A stretch of 64,000 nt of DNA from a phage. The stretch is taken from the NCBI GenBank assembly GCA_038450185.1, contig GCA_038450185.1_4765.1. One strand, given 5' to 3'. A program made the translations under genes and the position numbers. This document shows, piece after piece, positions 3,636-11,661 of this stretch (position 1 is the first letter of the stretch; the number at the start of each line of letters is the position of its first letter). The notes beneath the pieces are model-generated. The model was not told the DNA's origin. It was given only the letters and a program-made list of their open reading frames with translations, and searched no databases.

Positions 3636-3848
3636 TTATAATGCACCATCAAGCAATTGCTCTAAGGTGTATCCTGAATAGTCTTTTTCAATCAGGATAT
3701 ATTTTCCTACTCGTTTAATACAACCACGCATTTCAACGTATTCTGCGTAGTTGATGGTACGAGTTGTTCCATCTTCCAGTAATGCAGTACCGATTTCGTT
3801 AATGCGGTCATAAGTTACGTCGGTAATGATGATTTCGATGTTAGCCAT
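3636..3848 (-). CDS. hypothetical small early protein (70 aa from ATG)
   Basis: Track ORF 3636..3899 starts at an upstream GTG inside the promoter; internal ATG is preceded by AAGGAG. Confidence 0.5.
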   Translation of the reverse strand: MANIEIIITDVTYDRINEIGTALLEDGTTRTINYAEYVEMRGCIKRVGKYILIEKDYSGYTLEQLLDGAL

Positions 3849-3884
3849 TTGATACTCCTTAGTAGTTCGTTTCGGTATGTGTGC

Positions 3885-3913
3885 ATTATAGGGGATCACC
3901 GATCCCCTGTCAA
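3885..3913 (-). promoter_or_regulatory. sigma70-type early promoter, TTGACA-17-TATAAT, palindromic spacer
   Basis: -35 TTGACA and -10 TATAAT read on the minus strand; spacer GGGGATCACCGATCCCC. Confidence 0.6.
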
Positions 3914-3920
3914 CAACTTT

Positions 3921-4475
3921 TTAGTTATTTTTTAATTGTTCATCTTGCAATAATGCAATCACATGCTGGCGATGTTCTTCCGATTGAGGTACACCGAAAA
4001 AGTTTGTTTTGTAGAAATACTCTAATCGGTCTTCTCGTGTGCTCTCTTCCATCATGATCGCGGGTAGTCCGAGATTTCGGAAACGTCGCTTTTCTGCTGG
4101 CGTAAAATCACTGTAATACAACATAGAATCATCATTACAAGCAATGCTAAACTCATCCTTCATAAAGGAGAATATTGCGTTTAAACGCTGTTTACCGTCC
4201 ACGATTTCGATCTCATAGCGAGAGCCATCATCAATCTTAGCCATTGCGATAGCACCAACCGGAAAATCATTAATCAGGTTTTCGATAAACATACGTTTGT
4301 TTTCGGTGTCCCATACTAAAGGACGCTGATAATCTGGGTTCATGTTGATATAGCCATCTTCTAACCATGCTTCGTAAACAGAGATGACAAAGTTTTTAGT
4401 ATTGGTATAGTAACGGCGTTTAGGCGTTAAACGGTTCATGTTATAGTCTCCTGAATGGATCATCACGTAAATCAA
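3921..4475 (-). CDS. DUF262 (ParB-like, GmrS-type) domain protein
   Basis: Motifs PDYQRPLVW and IVDGKQRLNA typical of the DUF262 N-terminal domain of GmrSD-type enzymes; alternative ATG at about 4439 right after the upstream stop. Confidence 0.6.
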   Translation of the reverse strand: MIYVMIHSGDYNMNRLTPKRRYYTNTKNFVISVYEAWLEDGYINMNPDYQRPLVWDTENKRMFIENLINDFPVGAIAMAKIDDGSRYEIEIVDGKQRLNAIFSFMKDEFSIACNDDSMLYYSDFTPAEKRRFRNLGLPAIMMEESTREDRLEYFYKTNFFGVPQSEEHRQHVIALLQDEQLKNN

Positions 4476-4773
4476 TATCTTTTAAGAACTCATCCCATGA
4501 ATGGCGGATATTGTTCTTAATTCTCCAGATGAGCGCAGGGATTGAACGCTCTCCCATCTGGAAGTATGGATCATATGATCCGTATGCCCAATATGCTACT
4601 ACAATTCCACAATCAGAGCAATAGTATTCTATTTCACTTGCTGGCGACCAAAGTCCATCAATATGATCGGTGATCTTGCTTTCGATGTTATGGCTATGGC
4701 AATCAGGGCAACGGATGCAATGACCTTGTTTGTCGTAATTTGACGTTAGAGAATACTTAAACAATCTCATCAT
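4441..4773 (-). CDS. Cys/His-rich zinc-binding protein (110 aa)
   Basis: CxxC..CxH and CxxC clusters; translationally coupled to both neighbours. Confidence 0.45.
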   Translation of the reverse strand: MMRLFKYSLTSNYDKQGHCIRCPDCHSHNIESKITDHIDGLWSPASEIEYYCSDCGIVVAYWAYGSYDPYFQMGERSIPALIWRIKNNIRHSWDEFLKDIDLRDDPFRRL

Positions 4774-5486
4774 AGATCCTTATTGGCTTCAAATACTGCC
4801 TTTGCGAATCCTCGCGGGGTAAGCGACCTGATAGTCTTTGTTCTGGTTCCTTTCCCGCCTAGCTTAGAATGCTGTTTACTGTACCCTTTATTAATCTGCA
4901 AAGGTTTCTTTTCTGGCATTATAAAGCCTTGTCCGGTCCATAAGCAAGTCTTTTTTGGGTACATATCACGGGCGGCAATATACTCAGGAAACGTAGGATG
5001 CTTATCATCTTCCGGCAAATAACCGCCATATTCCCACGGATGGAACATATAATCAGGCTTACGCCACATGCTAGAGATAACGCTTACAGGATTCTCTATC
5101 ATGTAGGGAACTCCTAGCCATTCACCCAAATAAGCGGTTATTTTAGCTGCCCGTACATCATGAACTTGAATCAATGGTCCTTGTCCTCGTTTCTTTCGTT
5201 CAAAGTGCGCAGCGCCACTAACAGCTAAATTGGTGCACGGTGGGAATGCAAAGATAATATCCGGTTTCCCCCATTCAAGGTCCATTGCTCTTTCCAGCCA
5301 ATTCAAATCAATCCATGTGTTTACATAAGTAATGTTTGGATGTTCAAATCGGGTATTATACTTTTTGTATGTGCCGTGATCGCCATCGTCAGCATTAAAG
5401 CAGATCACCTTATGACCTTCTTTAGCCCATTCTAGCCCCATTATCCCCGATCCGTCAAAGTTGCAGAATATTAATTTTTGTTTCAT
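4770..5486 (-). CDS. compact C5-cytosine-methyltransferase-like protein (238 aa)
   Basis: Motif I-like FCNFDGSGIMG, motif IV-like IFAFPPCTNLAVSGA (Pro-Cys), motif VI-like ENPVSV, possible motif IX RSLTPRGFAKA; too short to hold a normal target recognition domain. Confidence 0.5.
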   Translation of the reverse strand: MKQKLIFCNFDGSGIMGLEWAKEGHKVICFNADDGDHGTYKKYNTRFEHPNITYVNTWIDLNWLERAMDLEWGKPDIIFAFPPCTNLAVSGAAHFERKKRGQGPLIQVHDVRAAKITAYLGEWLGVPYMIENPVSVISSMWRKPDYMFHPWEYGGYLPEDDKHPTFPEYIAARDMYPKKTCLWTGQGFIMPEKKPLQINKGYSKQHSKLGGKGTRTKTIRSLTPRGFAKAVFEANKDL

Positions 5487-5728: not shown

Positions 5729-5976
5729 GCTGCCCCCATTGGTTTGATAGTAACAGAATCTAAAAGACCTTTGTTAGCCAGTTCGCGGCAAGTTTTCAGA
5801 TCCGCAACTTCCCAGCCAGCCGCAATCAGGTTGTCAATGAGGCTGTTAGCAACTTCTTCGCTCATGAAAGAGCACTGTTTGCCGATGGTGTAGCGTACAC
5901 GCTGTAATTTCAGTTTACGGAAGCCTTTAACGTTCAGGTCTTTAGCGATTTTCTTTGCGGTTTCGATGTTAGCCAT
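5725..5976 (-). CDS. hypothetical protein (83 aa), first gene of operon
   Basis: ORF behind the promoter at about 6017-6045. Confidence 0.5.
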   Translation of the reverse strand: MANIETAKKIAKDLNVKGFRKLKLQRVRYTIGKQCSFMSEEVANSLIDNLIAAGWEVADLKTCRELANKGLLDSVTIKPMGAA

Positions 5977-6016
5977 TGTTTGATTCTCCTAAGTGGTATC
6001 TCGTCTTGATGGTTGT

Positions 6017-6045
6017 ATTGTAGGGGAGTTATCCTCCCCTGTCAA
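6017..6045 (-). promoter_or_regulatory. sigma70-type early promoter, TTGACA-17-TACAAT
   Basis: Spacer GGGGAGGATAACTCCCC is an imperfect palindrome. Confidence 0.5.
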
Positions 6046-6059
6046 CACTTTTTATAAAA

Positions 6060-6227
6060 TTATTTGTTAATTTCTGGTGCGTTGCTCGGATAGTAACCTT
6101 CTTTAACACCCAGATATTTTGCAACCATCCCTACAATCTTCTGTGCTACTACAATGTCAAATTTCAGATAATCTTCGCCGTGGGTTTCAATGATATATGC
6201 TTCACATGCTGCTTTAGTCTCGAACAT
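6060..6227 (-). CDS. hypothetical small protein (55 aa), paralog of 9803..9970
   Basis: C-terminus HGEDYLKFDIVVAQKIVGMVAKYLGVKEGYYPSNAPEINK nearly identical to the second copy; track start is upstream of the promoter. Confidence 0.55.
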   Translation of the reverse strand: MFETKAACEAYIIETHGEDYLKFDIVVAQKIVGMVAKYLGVKEGYYPSNAPEINK

Positions 6228-6260
6228 TTTGATTCTCCTATTTCGTTTCGTTATGTGTGT

Positions 6261-6290
6261 ATTATAGGGGATCGGTGATCCCCTTGTCAA
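6261..6290 (-). promoter_or_regulatory. sigma70-type early promoter, TTGACA / TATAAT
   Basis: Spacer palindrome GGGGATCGGTGATCCCC. Confidence 0.55.
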
Positions 6291-6305
6291 CAACTTTTTT
6301 TAAAA

Positions 6306-6657: not shown

Positions 6658-6927
6658 TTAGATATTTTCAGAAATAAATTTTAAAACTTGACGTAAATGT
6701 TTCTCATCTTTGATAGTCGCCGGAAGTTCTTCTTTTACTTCCTGTGCAAGATAGATATTTCCGTTCCAAGTGAAAGATCCGTCTTCGTTTACGCGATAGC
6801 TGAACATCCACTCGCAATCATTTTCGATTTCATATACACACAGAAGGGTGTAATCGTTAAAGCTAGTGATTTCAAGGTCGAAGCCGTGACGTTTTGCAAA
6901 GTTGGTAGTGGTTTTAGTCAGAGCCAT
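6658..6927 (-). CDS. hypothetical early protein (89 aa)
   Basis: ORF behind its own promoter. Confidence 0.5.
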   Translation of the reverse strand: MALTKTTTNFAKRHGFDLEITSFNDYTLLCVYEIENDCEWMFSYRVNEDGSFTWNGNIYLAQEVKEELPATIKDEKHLRQVLKFISENI

Positions 6928-6967
6928 TGTTTGATTCTCCTAAGTGGTATCTCGTTTCGATGTGTGT

Positions 6968-6996
6968 ATTATGCTATAGGCCGGATCTGGTGTCAA
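6968..6996 (-). promoter_or_regulatory. sigma70-type early promoter, TTGACA-17-CATAAT
   Basis: -35 and -10 hexamers on the minus strand. Confidence 0.5.
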
Positions 6997-7002
6997 TGCC
7001 TT

Positions 7003-7030
7003 TTTTAAAAAAGCCGACACTAAGGTCGGC
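7003..7030 (-). terminator. hairpin terminator
   Basis: GCCGAC-loop-GTCGGC followed by T-run on the minus strand. Confidence 0.5.
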
Positions 7031-7231
7031 ACATTTTAAAAATTCTTGCTATATATGCAAGCCTCATAATCTAGAGGATGACCGCCAATCCTACCCGGCT
7101 TAATATTCCAACCGCATCGATATTTGCTGACCATGCTAACAGTTTCGGTTCTTAGAGCATTTCTTTGCAAATCATACCCCCTAAATTCTTGTCTATAAGG
7201 ACAGTCCGCTTTGCAAGTTGGCGGTTCTACG

Positions 7232-7423
7232 TCATTTAGAGGGTCGGAAGCAGTTGGCTTTATTATCAATTCTTTGTTTGCAATAATCATAAGCACATCC
7301 CATTGAAGACAATTTAACATCTTCGCAATAAGTGTTGAATCCGTCAAATACAATCACTTCGTATTTGACTCCATCAGCGATAGCTTTTACTTTATACCAT
7401 CCATGCTTGTATAAAATCTTCAT
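7232..7423 (-). CDS. hypothetical Cys-rich small protein (63 aa)
   Basis: ATG preceded by GAGGAAAT; behind promoter at about 7456-7484. Confidence 0.45.
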   Translation of the reverse strand: MKILYKHGWYKVKAIADGVKYEVIVFDGFNTYCEDVKLSSMGCAYDYCKQRIDNKANCFRPSK

Positions 7424-7455
7424 CTTTATTTCCTCAATCTCGTTTCGATGGGTGT

Positions 7456-7484
7456 ATTATGCTATAGTCGTGATCTGGTGTCAA
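7456..7484 (-). promoter_or_regulatory. sigma70-type early promoter, TTGACA-17-CATAAT
   Basis: -35 and -10 hexamers on the minus strand. Confidence 0.5.
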
Positions 7485-7504
7485 TGCCTTTTTTAAAATT
7501 TTAT

Positions 7505-7536
7505 GCAATAAAAAAGCCGACACTAAGGTCGGCTAA
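7505..7536 (-). terminator. hairpin terminator
   Basis: GCCGAC-CTTAGTGT-GTCGGC followed by a T6 run on the minus strand. Confidence 0.5.
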
Positions 7537-7541
7537 TGAAA

Positions 7542-7847
7542 TCATTTAGACAAATAATCATTCTGTGCAATCCGGTCAGCATGTTCCGGCGTTACGTCAA
7601 TTGCAATCACTTTAACGCGCGCTTTCTTGACTGAATTTTCTCGTAGCCAGTGCGTGTGACCGTGCACATTTTTATACTTTGATGCTTTTTCGAAAGTACG
7701 GATCGGACCTGGGTAATCAGCGTAAAGGATCTCTAGGTCTTCTGTGATGTAAAAATATACATCATAATTACTGTTCTCTAGTTTAAGCAGAGACTTTCGG
7801 AACATTGGGAGATTTTCGCGGGTAAATTCAAAGATATTATCTTTCAT
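7542..7847 (-). CDS. small protein, HxHW paralog family member (101 aa)
   Basis: C-terminal HGHTHWL...VIAIDV motif shared with five nearby ORFs; trimmed to internal ATG. Confidence 0.55.
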   Translation of the reverse strand: MKDNIFEFTRENLPMFRKSLLKLENSNYDVYFYITEDLEILYADYPGPIRTFEKASKYKNVHGHTHWLRENSVKKARVKVIAIDVTPEHADRIAQNDYLSK

Positions 7848-8265: not shown

Positions 8266-8544
8266 TTATAAAATAATTTTTTGATATTTTTCTATGATGT
8301 TCGTGTAATTCACATCAACCGCTAGCACCGTTGCTTCGAATCCACCGTTTAGCCAATGGCTATGATCGTGATCGTGAAAGAAACCTAGACCAGTACGAAG
8401 ACCTTCTTTATATTCGGCGCGTACATTTAGATCATCATCGATAAACAGATAAAACCATGAATTTTTACTAGGATTGATGATACAACCTTTCAGATTCGGG
8501 AGAATATCACGACTAAGAATAAACTTATCACCTACTTTGAACAT
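8266..8544 (-). CDS. small protein, HxHW paralog family member (92 aa)
   Basis: HDHSHWL...VLAVDV motif; trimmed to internal ATG. Confidence 0.55.
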   Translation of the reverse strand: MFKVGDKFILSRDILPNLKGCIINPSKNSWFYLFIDDDLNVRAEYKEGLRTGLGFFHDHDHSHWLNGGFEATVLAVDVNYTNIIEKYQKIIL

Positions 8545-8558
8545 AATATTTTCCTCAC

Positions 8559-8867
8559 TTATAAAGTTTGACCGTTGTTTTTCGCGTAATGCTGAATGCG
8601 TGCTTGATCTGCTTCCGATGGTGATAGATTCCATGCAACCACTACAACTTCTGAAGCATCGTCATCCGTTTCTGATACCCAATGATTGTGATTCATACAG
8701 TTATTTGCTATCGAGTGAGCAAATGATTTCATCACTGGAGACGTATAATCATAGTAACGGATTTTCAGATTTTCATCAACATACAAGTAGATCGTATACG
8801 GCTTATATTCAGTAACCAATAACAGACAGTTACGCAATTCTGGGAAAATCTTTTTAGTTAATTTCAT
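8559..8867 (-). CDS. small protein, HxHW paralog family member (102 aa)
   Basis: YLYVDENL...NHNHWV...VVVVAW motif pattern. Confidence 0.5.
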   Translation of the reverse strand: MKLTKKIFPELRNCLLLVTEYKPYTIYLYVDENLKIRYYDYTSPVMKSFAHSIANNCMNHNHWVSETDDDASEVVVVAWNLSPSEADQARIQHYAKNNGQTL

Positions 8868-9069
8868 ATTCTAGTTCTCCGTAATACACGGTAATCCATT
8901 TTTCTTCATACTTTGTATCTTTCCAGCACACAATCCCGTTTACTGTGCAATCTTTGGAATTGACGAATGATTCATATTGTTCTGCATCTTCCATCATTTC
9001 ATGAGCGGTCTTTTCATCGAATATATCGCAGATCGCTTTATATGCTCGATAATCTTTAAATTTGCTCAT
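8854..9069 (-). CDS. hypothetical small protein, tandem paralog A
   Basis: MSKFKDYRAY...MMEDA...GIVCWKDT shared with 9072..9281. Confidence 0.5.
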   Translation of the reverse strand: MSKFKDYRAYKAICDIFDEKTAHEMMEDAEQYESFVNSKDCTVNGIVCWKDTKYEEKWITVYYGELEYEIN

Positions 9070-9071
9070 AA

Positions 9072-9281
9072 TTAACACCACTCAAGAGTTTTTGAAAACA
9101 CATCTATCCATTGTTGAGTATATGCGGTTTCTTTCCATGACACAATACCAGTCGAATAATGGTTTTTGTTTCCAGAAAAGGACGGGCATTTTGATGCATC
9201 TTCCATCATCTTTTCGGCGAACTCTGGTGCGTATACTCGCAGGATCTGTTGATATGCTTTATAGTCTTTAAATTTGCTCAT
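9072..9281 (-). CDS. hypothetical small protein, tandem paralog B
   Basis: MSKFKDYKAY...MMEDA...GIVSWKET shared with 8854..9069. Confidence 0.5.
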   Translation of the reverse strand: MSKFKDYKAYQQILRVYAPEFAEKMMEDASKCPSFSGNKNHYSTGIVSWKETAYTQQWIDVFSKTLEWC

Positions 9282-9546
9282 AATCGTTAACTACCTTATC
9301 AGCTTCTTTTATTGTTTTTACATCAACTGCGATAATCCGTAAAGGTTCGTCGAAGGTCCACCAATGATCGTGAATATCAGCTTGTGATTTATCACCAAAG
9401 GAATCACGAATATCATTTTTACATTTATAGCTAATGTGACCGTCATAGTCAACATAAAGGTAATTATCGAAAATCGGCGTTTTTAAGATCATACCGAAAA
9501 ATCTTTCTTTGTGTGTCTTATCCAGTGTTGCAGTAATTCGCATCAT
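9268..9546 (-). CDS. small protein, HxHW paralog family member (92 aa)
   Basis: YLYVDYDG...HDHWW...IIAVDV motif. Confidence 0.55.
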   Translation of the reverse strand: MMRITATLDKTHKERFFGMILKTPIFDNYLYVDYDGHISYKCKNDIRDSFGDKSQADIHDHWWTFDEPLRIIAVDVKTIKEADKVVNDYEQI

Positions 9547-9738: not shown

Positions 9739-9802
9739 TTTGATTCTCCGTTTGTTGTCTTGATGGGAGTATATTACTACTCCCTTTAATCATTGTCAAC
9801 TA

Positions 9803-9970
9803 TTATTTGTTAATTTCCGGTGCGTTGCTCGGATAGTAACCTTCTTTAACACCCAGATATTTCGCAACCATTCCGGTGATCTTCTGTGCTACTACGATAT
9901 CGAATTTCAGGTAGTCTTCACCGTGGTTTGCTACAATGTATGCTTCGCATTCTGCTTTAGTCTGGAACAT
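9803..9970 (-). CDS. hypothetical small protein (55 aa), paralog of 6060..6227
   Basis: About 90% nucleotide identity to 6060..6227 by eye; same promoter type. Confidence 0.55.
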   Translation of the reverse strand: MFQTKAECEAYIVANHGEDYLKFDIVVAQKITGMVAKYLGVKEGYYPSNAPEINK

Positions 9971-10003
9971 TTTTGATTCTCCTATATCTCGTTGGTATGT
10001 GTG

Positions 10004-10033
10004 CATTATAGGGGATCACCGATCCCCTGTCAA
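10004..10033 (-). promoter_or_regulatory. sigma70-type early promoter with GGGGATC..GATCCCC spacer
   Basis: Near-identical to promoter at 3885..3913. Confidence 0.55.
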
Positions 10034-10041
10034 CAACTTTT

Positions 10042-10344
10042 TTATTCTTCGTCTTTATCTTTATATGCGTATTTCATAAATTTGTCTGCTACTTCATCGG
10101 CATGTTCCGATTCTACGTCGGATTCGAGAACAATAGCAAGATCGGTTTCGTCGTTTCCGTCATACCAATGATTATGAGTATCGTTTTCTTCGATATAGAA
10201 TGAGTCATTTGGAGTTGGACGACAATATACATCTAAATTCTCATCGATGTAAAAGATCCAATCTTCGTAAAGAATAACCGTATTAGCCAGATTTTTATTG
10301 CCTTCAACGAAAGGTTCAGCTACAAATAGCTTAGTTTGTTCCAT
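10042..10344 (-). CDS. small protein, HxHW paralog family member (100 aa)
   Basis: IFYIDENL...THNHWY...LAIVLESDV motif; trimmed to internal ATG. Confidence 0.5.
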   Translation of the reverse strand: MEQTKLFVAEPFVEGNKNLANTVILYEDWIFYIDENLDVYCRPTPNDSFYIEENDTHNHWYDGNDETDLAIVLESDVESEHADEVADKFMKYAYKDKDEE

Positions 10345-10608: not shown

Positions 10609-10911
10609 TTACGCAAAATGGCGTGTCAATGCTTCTTTTGCTGTTCCGCTAAGATTCTCGATCTCTCCTGGCATAACATCAACCGCCAGAACTTCTACAA
10701 CATCCTCTGATCCTAACCAGTGAGTATGACCTTTGTAGAACTTGATATCCCATTTATCGCTATCGCTAGCCCACCACACATCACCGTCGATAAAGTTGAT
10801 GTAAAGCACACTACGACACATTGAATTAATTACTTTCAATACTGCGCCTTTCATATCTTCCACGGTATGGTCTTCCATTTTGAAGACCTCACCTACCTGA
10901 ACTTTTGCCAT
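10609..10911 (-). CDS. small protein, HxHW paralog family member (100 aa)
   Basis: LYINFIDGDV...KGHTHWL...VLAVDV motif. Confidence 0.55.
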   Translation of the reverse strand: MAKVQVGEVFKMEDHTVEDMKGAVLKVINSMCRSVLYINFIDGDVWWASDSDKWDIKFYKGHTHWLGSEDVVEVLAVDVMPGEIENLSGTAKEALTRHFA

Positions 10912-11108: not shown

Positions 11109-11142
11109 AATTGATTCTCCTAGTTCGTTTCGGTATGTGTGT

Positions 11143-11171
11143 AGTATAGGGGATCGGTGATCCCCTGTCAA
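11143..11171 (-). promoter_or_regulatory. sigma70-type early promoter with GGGGATCGGTGATCCCC spacer
   Basis: -35 TTGACA, -10 TATACT. Confidence 0.5.
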
Positions 11172-11184
11172 CAACTTTTTTGAA

Positions 11185-11661
11185 TTATTTTTCTTTATGC
11201 TCGCGCTCATACTTTTCGAAATAAAATTCTACTGGCTGGTCGTGGATTGACAGTAAGCCAAAGCGTTTAGCCGCTCGCAATCCCATATTGCGCTGAATGT
11301 ACTTCTGGAAGTTCTCGCGTATACACTTACGCCAGTATTCTAAGCCCATACAGCTTTTATAAAGATTGCATTGCACACATGCCGGATTCATGTTATCAAG
11401 TATATCATGCTCCGGTTTATGCATTCCTACAACCTTATACTTCCACGATCCATCATCATTACGGGCAATTCGTCCATTTTCATCATAGACTACCTTTGAG
11501 CGTCGCAATACTGGTTTGATGTGGTCTGCGTGCCAGCGATCCCCTAGTTCCTCGCCACAATAGGCACAACGTCCACCATATTTCATTTTCAGGATCTGGC
11601 GTTGCTCTTTCTTTGACAATTTTTTAGGTTTAGGGGCTTTCGCCCCTTCATTATCACACAT
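11185..11661 (-). CDS. HNH endonuclease
   Basis: CAYCGEEL...WHADHIKP HNH motif plus C-terminal CVQCN; overlaps the ligase 3' end by 8 nt. Confidence 0.55.
   Translation of the reverse strand: MCDNEGAKAPKPKKLSKKEQRQILKMKYGGRCAYCGEELGDRWHADHIKPVLRRSKVVYDENGRIARNDDGSWKYKVVGMHKPEHDILDNMNPACVQCNLYKSCMGLEYWRKCIRENFQKYIQRNMGLRAAKRFGLLSIHDQPVEFYFEKYEREHKEK

Follow-up and report, generated by a model that had tools for sequence, protein, structure and literature searches.

The window (the whole stretch of 64,000 nt of phage DNA that was analysed) contains two small genes, copy A and copy B, each encoding a 55-residue protein and each preceded by a promoter that encloses a hairpin. The segment is 93-96% identical to genomes of Krischvirus, the RB49-like T4-type coliphages, and the region holding the two genes is 93% identical to positions 116820-122088 of RB49; the window is assigned on its sequence to Krischvirus. 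The region lies between alt and gene 30 (DNA ligase), as in HPR3 of RB49, and from 3.5 to 13 kb of the window all the genes are on the minus strand. The window resembles phage phi1 in being without RB49 ORF192 but, unlike phi1, carries ORF195/196-like genes. In the RB49 and phi1 records the orthologues of copies A and B, ORF191 and ORF205, are both named 'hypothetical protein'. The features are listed in Table 1.

Table 1 Features of the two cassettes, of related promoter-hairpin units (PeSLs) and of a neighbouring tandem gene pair
Feature	Position in window	Strand	Description
PeSL before copy A (phi1 PeSL193/191 position)	6228-6305	minus	A-rich tract after ORF193 stop, through to UTR with AGGAG (6239-6235)
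Copy A promoter	-35 TTGACA 6290-6285; -10 TATAAT 6266-6261	minus	12/12 consensus, 18-nt spacer
Copy A hairpin GGGGATCACCGATCCCC	6283-6267	minus	MFE -14.3 kcal/mol, z = -2.9
Copy A CDS	6060-6227	minus	168 nt, 55 aa + stop, MFETKAACEAY...APEINK; RB49/phi1 ORF191 orthologue; PHROG 8009, E = 7e-38
PeSL191/190, 3' boundary of cassette A	5977-6059	minus	TTGACA, hairpin GGGGAGgataaCTCCCC, TACAAT; -20.5 kcal/mol, z = -3.8
PeSL before copy B (PeSL206/205)	9971-10041	minus	Hairpin and UTR with AGGAG
Copy B promoter	-35 10033-10028; -10 10010-10005	minus	12/12 consensus, 17-nt spacer
Copy B hairpin GGGGATCGGTGATCCCC	10027-10011	minus	MFE -15.1 kcal/mol
Copy B CDS	9803-9970	minus	168 nt, 55 aa + stop, MFQTKAECEAY...APEINK; RB49/phi1 ORF205 orthologue; PHROG 8009, E = 1e-38
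PeSL205/204, 3' boundary of cassette B	9739-9802	minus	TTGACA, hairpin GGGAGTAgtaataTACTCCC overlapping -10; -15.2 kcal/mol, z = -4.0
PeSL at 186/185 position, unrelated gene	3849-3920	minus	GATC-hairpin; -35 to -10 identical to PeSL of copy B
PeSL, unrelated gene	11109-11195	minus	GATC-hairpin; closest relative (87%) of PeSL of copy A; repeat family D2
Tandem paralogue 1	8854-9069	minus	71 aa, MSKFKDYRAY...; RB49 ORF201-like; PHROG 8471
Tandem paralogue 2	9072-9281	minus	69 aa, MSKFKDYKAY...; phi1 ORF202-like; PHROG 8471

The original prediction was of two near-identical 55-residue genes about 3.7 kb apart with roughly 90% nucleotide identity. The genes are as described, with 49 of the 55 residues the same in both proteins. 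Ungapped alignment of the coding sequences gave 146 identities in 168 nt; this value of 86.9% is high, though slightly lower than predicted, and lies far above the 70% that had been set as the lower limit for the claim. Third codon positions account for 15 of the 22 differences, and by codon there are 13 synonymous and 6 non-synonymous differences. The same pair was returned independently by a repeat search (6059-6230 against 9802-9973, 87%; repeat family D3). When the flanks were included in the pairwise alignment, the similarity stretched from just past the upstream gene's stop codon to that of the cassette itself.

The sequences upstream of both copies have the anatomy of PeSLs (promoter-early stem-loops), which were described for this same region of RB49 and phi1 by Arbiol et al. 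2010, Genome Biol Evol (PMC2839356). About 50 occur per genome, mainly before ORFans in hyperplastic regions, and five subclasses are told apart by the position of the hairpin (PMC2839356). Sigma-70 boxes, stem-loop, AT-rich tract, Shine-Dalgarno (SD) sequence, ORFan and hyperplastic region were all found here. The layout is TAA-TTTTAAAAAAAGTTG-TTGACA ... TAGGAGAATCAAA-ATG, that is, an AT-rich tract running from the upstream stop codon and, beyond the promoter, the SD sequence and the ORFan start. The hairpins of copies A and B are 17-nt palindromes between -35 and -10, with 8-bp stems in the predicted folds, and they read GGGGATC-ACC-GATCCCC and GGGGATC-GGT-GATCCCC, respectively. The two genes do share a promoter type, as had been claimed: each has a GGGGATC-nnn-GATCCCC PeSL with 12/12 matches to TTGACA/TATAAT.

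Such units are not confined to the two genes. Near-consensus promoter sites number 31 in the window, where 2.5 would be expected, and every one is on the minus strand; there are five PeSLs of the GGGGATC-nnn-GATCCCC type (-35 boxes at 3913, 6290, 10033, 11171 and 46029). Promoters are annotated at the same PeSL sites in the GenBank record of GEC-3S. The PeSL206/205 of RB49 is identical to that of the window from GTTGTTGAC to the ATG, and in RB49/phi1 this PeSL was a strong promoter in a lacZ fusion (~13,000 Miller units; PMC2839356). Terminator activity was shown only for PeSL211/210, where it was as strong as that of rrnB T1 (PMC2839356). A simple terminator scan of the window did not call the PeSL hairpins of copies A and B, since each is followed by TATAAT and not by a T-run. 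Two other genes on the minus strand also lie between PeSLs in this hyperplastic region: one for a protein named 'DUF262 domain protein' in the W115 record (3921-4475) and one for a DNA methyltransferase (4770-5486; RB49 ORF189).

PeSLs were compared over a set interval that opens 22 nt before the -35 box and closes at the start codon. The PeSLs of copies A and B are 78% identical to each other, whereas that of copy A is 87% identical to the PeSL at 11171 and that of copy B 81% identical to the PeSL at 3913, both of which drive genes unrelated to copies A and B. The similarity of the promoters is therefore a trait of the PeSL repeat family and not of the gene pair. Hence the proposal that gene and promoter were duplicated together as one cassette could not be upheld, as co-duplication of the promoter is not demonstrable where each PeSL is closer to one before an unrelated gene than to its counterpart. 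The promoters may have been swapped after duplication of the gene, or may never have been co-duplicated with it.

The ACC-loop hairpins (6267-6283 and 11149-11165) and the GGT-loop hairpins (3891-3907 and 10011-10027) are exact reverse complements of each other, with the loop flipped. At PeSL206/205 the loop is ACC in phi1 and GGT in the window, RB49, Brandy and Cognac, and from -35 to the start of the UTR the phi1 PeSL206/205 is identical to the 11171-type PeSL of the window. These patterns suggest either conversion of one PeSL by another or inversion of the hairpin. A dedicated protein for recombination or nicking may even act on the GGGGATC...GATCCCC hairpin, which would then not be a passive patch of homology, an idea on which Arbiol et al. 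speculated (PMC2839356).

The phylogenetic range of the pair was then considered. A tblastn search with the 55-residue protein matched 71 phage records and, among the matches listed, every Krischvirus record had exactly two copies, except for six with a single copy. Across nine phages the identities were 96.4-100% within A, 94.6-98.2% within B and 84.5-90.5% between A and B, and 12 differences between A and B are fixed, all of them in nt 7-99. By this comparison copies A and B each form an ortholog group of their own throughout the genus.

For the pair in the window the Nei-Gojobori method gave dN = 0.055 and dS = 0.67. The ratio of ~0.08 implies that strong purifying selection acts on both copies and that both are functional genes. 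The divergence is a mosaic: dS is ~1.47, near saturation, for codons 1-33 and falls to ~0.16 for codons 34-55, and the raw differences are distributed 20/99 and 2/66 over these two parts (Fisher p = 0.001). Moreover, polymorphisms in nt 100-168 are common to the A and B lineages; at sites 114/117/120, for example, copy A of the window and of Cognac has the B-type TGT, and copy A of RB49, phi1 and FL04 has CCA. The low dS and shared polymorphisms argue that the 3' 40% of the CDS has been homogenised repeatedly by gene conversion. In Brandy, six diagnostic sites in a row within copy B (nt 51-75) are A-type, a run absent from copy B of JK32, UPWr_E1, MIZ5, RB49, phi1 and the window, which indicates a gene conversion tract there too.

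The separate ortholog groups, the fixed differences and the mosaic dS together imply that, on the time scale of the sampled genus, the duplication (or double acquisition) is an ancient event. The original prediction had instead regarded it as a recent segmental duplication of gene and promoter, a reading to which the 87% nucleotide identity, the shared promoter subtype and the near identity of the last 69 nt would lend themselves. The high overall identity, however, is due in part to the homogenisation of nt 100-168 and not to youth; with both copies conserved as orthologues throughout the genus, the 5' 60% of the CDS saturated at synonymous sites (dS ~1.5 in codons 1-33) and the same kind of promoter in front of unrelated genes, a recent origin is highly improbable.

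The relatives were also examined for the state of the locus. At cassette A, 52 of 59 Krischvirus records have the normal context, two are recombinants between A and B, three are without A and two have a larger deletion. In Cognac there is one copy only, with ORF206 upstream and ORF190 downstream, and ORF193-ORF204 are gone. This copy is a chimera in which the PeSL and UTR are B-type (…CCAACGAGATATAGG) and the CDS and everything downstream are A-type, placing the crossover within ATAGGAGAATCAAAATGTTC. FL04 has the same gene order as Cognac but its UTR is already A-type, so that its crossover lies near the A-tract/-35. As the crossovers differ, the two deletions are regarded as independent events; both single-copy states are taken from the deposited assemblies.

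Brandy, JK32 and UPWr_E1 are without cassette A, and a single chimeric PeSL, with a 5' part of the GATC-hairpin type and a UTR of the PeSL191/190 type, links ORF193 to ORF190; this may reflect loss or gain of the cassette, in either direction. In MIZ4 and MIZ5 ORF193 is joined directly to ORF185 via the 186/185 PeSL (the 3913 copy in the window), and ORF191 to ORF186 are removed. The junctions in Brandy/JK32/UPWr_E1, MIZ5, FL04 and Cognac are all chimeric PeSLs, so the PeSL acts as a site of crossover, and the positions of the crossovers (AT-rich/-35, or -10 to SD/ATG) agree with those of the published mini-circles (PMC2839356). Mini-circles arising from exchange between PeSLs have been sequenced, one of them with ORF191-194 (PMC2839356). 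The single chimeric copies of Cognac and FL04 and the conversion tract in Brandy thus bear out the earlier suggestion that the copies are substrates for recombination, and their position in a hyperplastic region agrees with its description of the region as variable.

The census also bears on whether the presence of both copies could be an artefact of assembly, through expansion or mis-joining of a repeat. Beyond the general risk that attaches to any repeat nothing points this way. The copies differ at 22 sites and stand in different unique contexts, and the same two loci recur in the large majority of the 59 independently assembled genomes. With both copies and the same diagnostic A/B differences in dozens of independent assemblies, an artefact is so unlikely that it can be set aside for practical purposes.

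Both copies match the PHROG 8009 profile over its full length (residues 1-55/55; E = 6.8e-38 and 1.2e-38), while searches of Pfam, NCBIfam and PDB sequences with the 55-residue protein gave nothing significant. The family is very small: a set of 5.8 billion proteins yielded 17 clusters and one of 1.84 billion yielded 13 representatives, and deep sequence searches gave no link to a larger family. Conservation within it follows the pattern M-F-x-T-K-x-x-C-E-x-Y-I…G…A…A…(E)G-x-Y-x-S. An AlphaFold model from a 6-sequence alignment was poor (pLDDT 61) and was set aside for one from a 13-sequence alignment, which is compact (pLDDT 94.4, pTM 0.73). The predicted structure has helices at 5-16, 18-22 and 33-39, strands at 28-31 and 44-47 and a bridge residue at 2; no structural relatives of this model were found, nor any solved member of the family.

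Outside Krischvirus, homologues are found in the siphoviruses Swiduovirus and Skatevirus (69-72% aa identity) and Sashavirus (38-40%). At three siphovirus loci (L006 4001-4358, L008 2501-2858 and L007 1492-2125) the gene belongs to a short opposite-strand cluster beside terL, and the swi2 cluster carries a promoter-like site of its own and a terminator-like hairpin. Other homologues (L014-L016, ~6001-6162) are on a chromosomal island, that of P0012 in Salmonella genomes; there, a terS-like gene (phrog_57, E = 1e-18) lies ~2 kb away and a weak match to a major head protein is close by. This context suggests that the islands are phage satellites or phage remnants.

The mobility of the family, in unrelated siphoviruses (38-72% aa) and chromosomal islands, raises another possibility, namely that copies A and B are xenologues, acquired horizontally and independently at two PeSLs and later partly homogenised. 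Insertion of foreign cassettes is explicitly allowed by the PeSL model (PMC2839356), and the PeSLs of A and B both have closer relatives than one another. The dS of ~1.5 in codons 1-33 would also fit, although a value so near saturation would suit a duplication within the genome equally well. On the other hand, A and B are 89% identical in amino acids, more than either is to the next closest homologue, P0003 (83%; on a contig with bacterial genes), or to the siphovirus proteins (at most 72%); both copies sit in the same region, and a donor lineage is not known. Two separate acquisitions are therefore considered unlikely, and descent of the two copies as old paralogues is preferred.

As to function, the protein is most likely, as a best guess, a small early accessory or host-interaction factor. 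More tentatively, and with a low probability, it might be an early effector with a new fold, acting in anti-defence, host takeover or DNA packaging. This idea comes from the confident predicted model with just 13 representative clusters among 1.84 billion proteins, from the maintenance of the gene in two diverging copies at dN/dS ~0.08, and from its horizontal spread to three siphovirus genera and a satellite-like island of Salmonella, beside terminase genes.

A second pair of paralogues, also predicted to be a recent duplication, does exist in tandem between the two cassettes, but it is not recent. The proteins are 46% identical (31/68 aa; BLASTP, E = 4e-21), which marks an old duplication; the mean column identity of 78% from MAFFT is not a pairwise identity and was discarded in favour of the BLASTP value. 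The genes are separated by 2 nt and no promoter intervenes, and at the DNA level strong similarity is limited to the first ~40 nt (family D5). Pfam, NCBIfam and PDB sequence searches with the pair gave no significant match.

Other repeats were observed in the region. Six small paralogues on the minus strand (7542-7847, 8266-8544, 8559-8867, 9268-9546, 10042-10341 and 10609-10911; ~92-102 aa) are 25-30% identical to the first member and share an invariant H-x-H-W together with Y-L-Y-(I/V)-D-E-D-L-like and A-V-D-V-like motifs. They match PHROGs 9345, 17255, 15972, 15965 and 16486 but have no Pfam match. This H-x-H-W family is much larger than the 55-residue pair and fills the interval between the cassettes. 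At 6960-7540 there are two near-identical units (family D1), each an early promoter plus an intrinsic terminator, AGCCGACCTTAGTGTCGGC and then a T-run (terminators at 7013-7030 and 7515-7534), which flank the ORF195/196-like genes that phi1 lacks. A 79-nt repeat with 77% identity (5941-6019 and 6892-6970; family D4) covers the UTR/SD and first codons of an ORF190-like gene (MANIE…) and an ORF194-like gene (MALTK…), and the ORF185-like gene (3636-3848) also starts MANIE. PeSL homology thus sometimes reaches into the first codons.

Taken together, the results make it likely, at a probability of about 0.8, that copies A and B are old paralogous PeSL + ORFan cassettes that act as a dispersed direct repeat of ~230 bp. 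Each copy would be a self-contained early transcription unit, made up of the A-rich tract, the promoter with its hairpin, the UTR with the SD sequence and one small ORF, and bounded downstream by the next PeSL. Both would presumably be expressed by the host RNA polymerase right after infection, and the G/C hairpin between -35 and -10 would in addition attenuate read-through from upstream, an activity taken from the RB49/phi1 literature. We infer that the two copies originated by homologous exchange between PeSLs, through re-insertion of an excised mini-circle or unequal crossing-over in replicating concatemers. The T4-type recombination machinery would then use the A/B repeat in three ways: for gene conversion that has homogenised the 3' 40% of the CDS, for deletion of the intervening 3.7-4.3 kb, and for removing or adding one cassette cleanly at the PeSLs that flank it. 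Beyond this usual T4-like machinery no integrase, excisionase or recombinase was identified in RB49/phi1 (PMC2839356).

The promoter, terminator and mini-circle data in this account come from experiments on RB49 and phi1; the anatomy of the window, the orthology, selection, divergence and recombinants come from sequence analysis. The literature already covers the type of element, this region and one promoter of the two. New here are the paralogy of ORF191 and ORF205, of which a text search of Arbiol et al. found no mention (PMC2839356), the concerted evolution of the 3' part and the natural A x B deletion recombinants; indels at the cassettes are not discussed in the Brandy/Cognac/Whisky paper (PMC9569957). 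These details give incremental support to the published PeSL model and leave existing knowledge unchanged. The support is from natural populations, in that at least four distinct recombinant states occur at one cassette among 59 relatives. A duplicated cassette also stretches the recombining homology into the CDS, with concerted evolution and multi-gene deletions as the outcome. As the 3.7-kb interval is dispensable and unstable, this is of use to those who annotate or engineer Krischvirus phages for therapy.

The closest known systems are the PeSL + ORFan cassettes of RB49/phi1 (PMC2839356; Comeau et al. 2014, PMC4122927), which belong to the same genus and hyperplastic region, include the orthologous ORF191 and ORF205 and have the same order of A-rich tract, sigma-70 promoter, polyG/polyC hairpin between -35 and -10, SD sequence and ORFan. 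There too, as in the relatives of the window, crossovers fall inside PeSLs. The present pair departs from published PeSL exchange in that the recombining repeat includes the CDS and not the PeSL alone, in the conversion inside an ORF and in the deletion of a 12-gene interval (Cognac, FL04). Morons (Hendrix et al. 2000, discussed in PMC2839356) are likewise single small accessory genes with their own promoter and a terminator-like hairpin, and the siphovirus homologues, in small opposite-strand clusters beside terminase genes, resemble them. The Krischvirus cassettes, by contrast, are co-oriented with their neighbours and mobilised through homology of the regulatory linkers, not by illegitimate recombination. 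Integron gene cassettes, an analogy drawn by the PeSL authors themselves (PMC2839356), are also small, promoter-associated single-gene modules that can form circles and are inserted at a conserved site; every PeSL cassette, however, has its own promoter, and its exchange is apparently by general homologous recombination.
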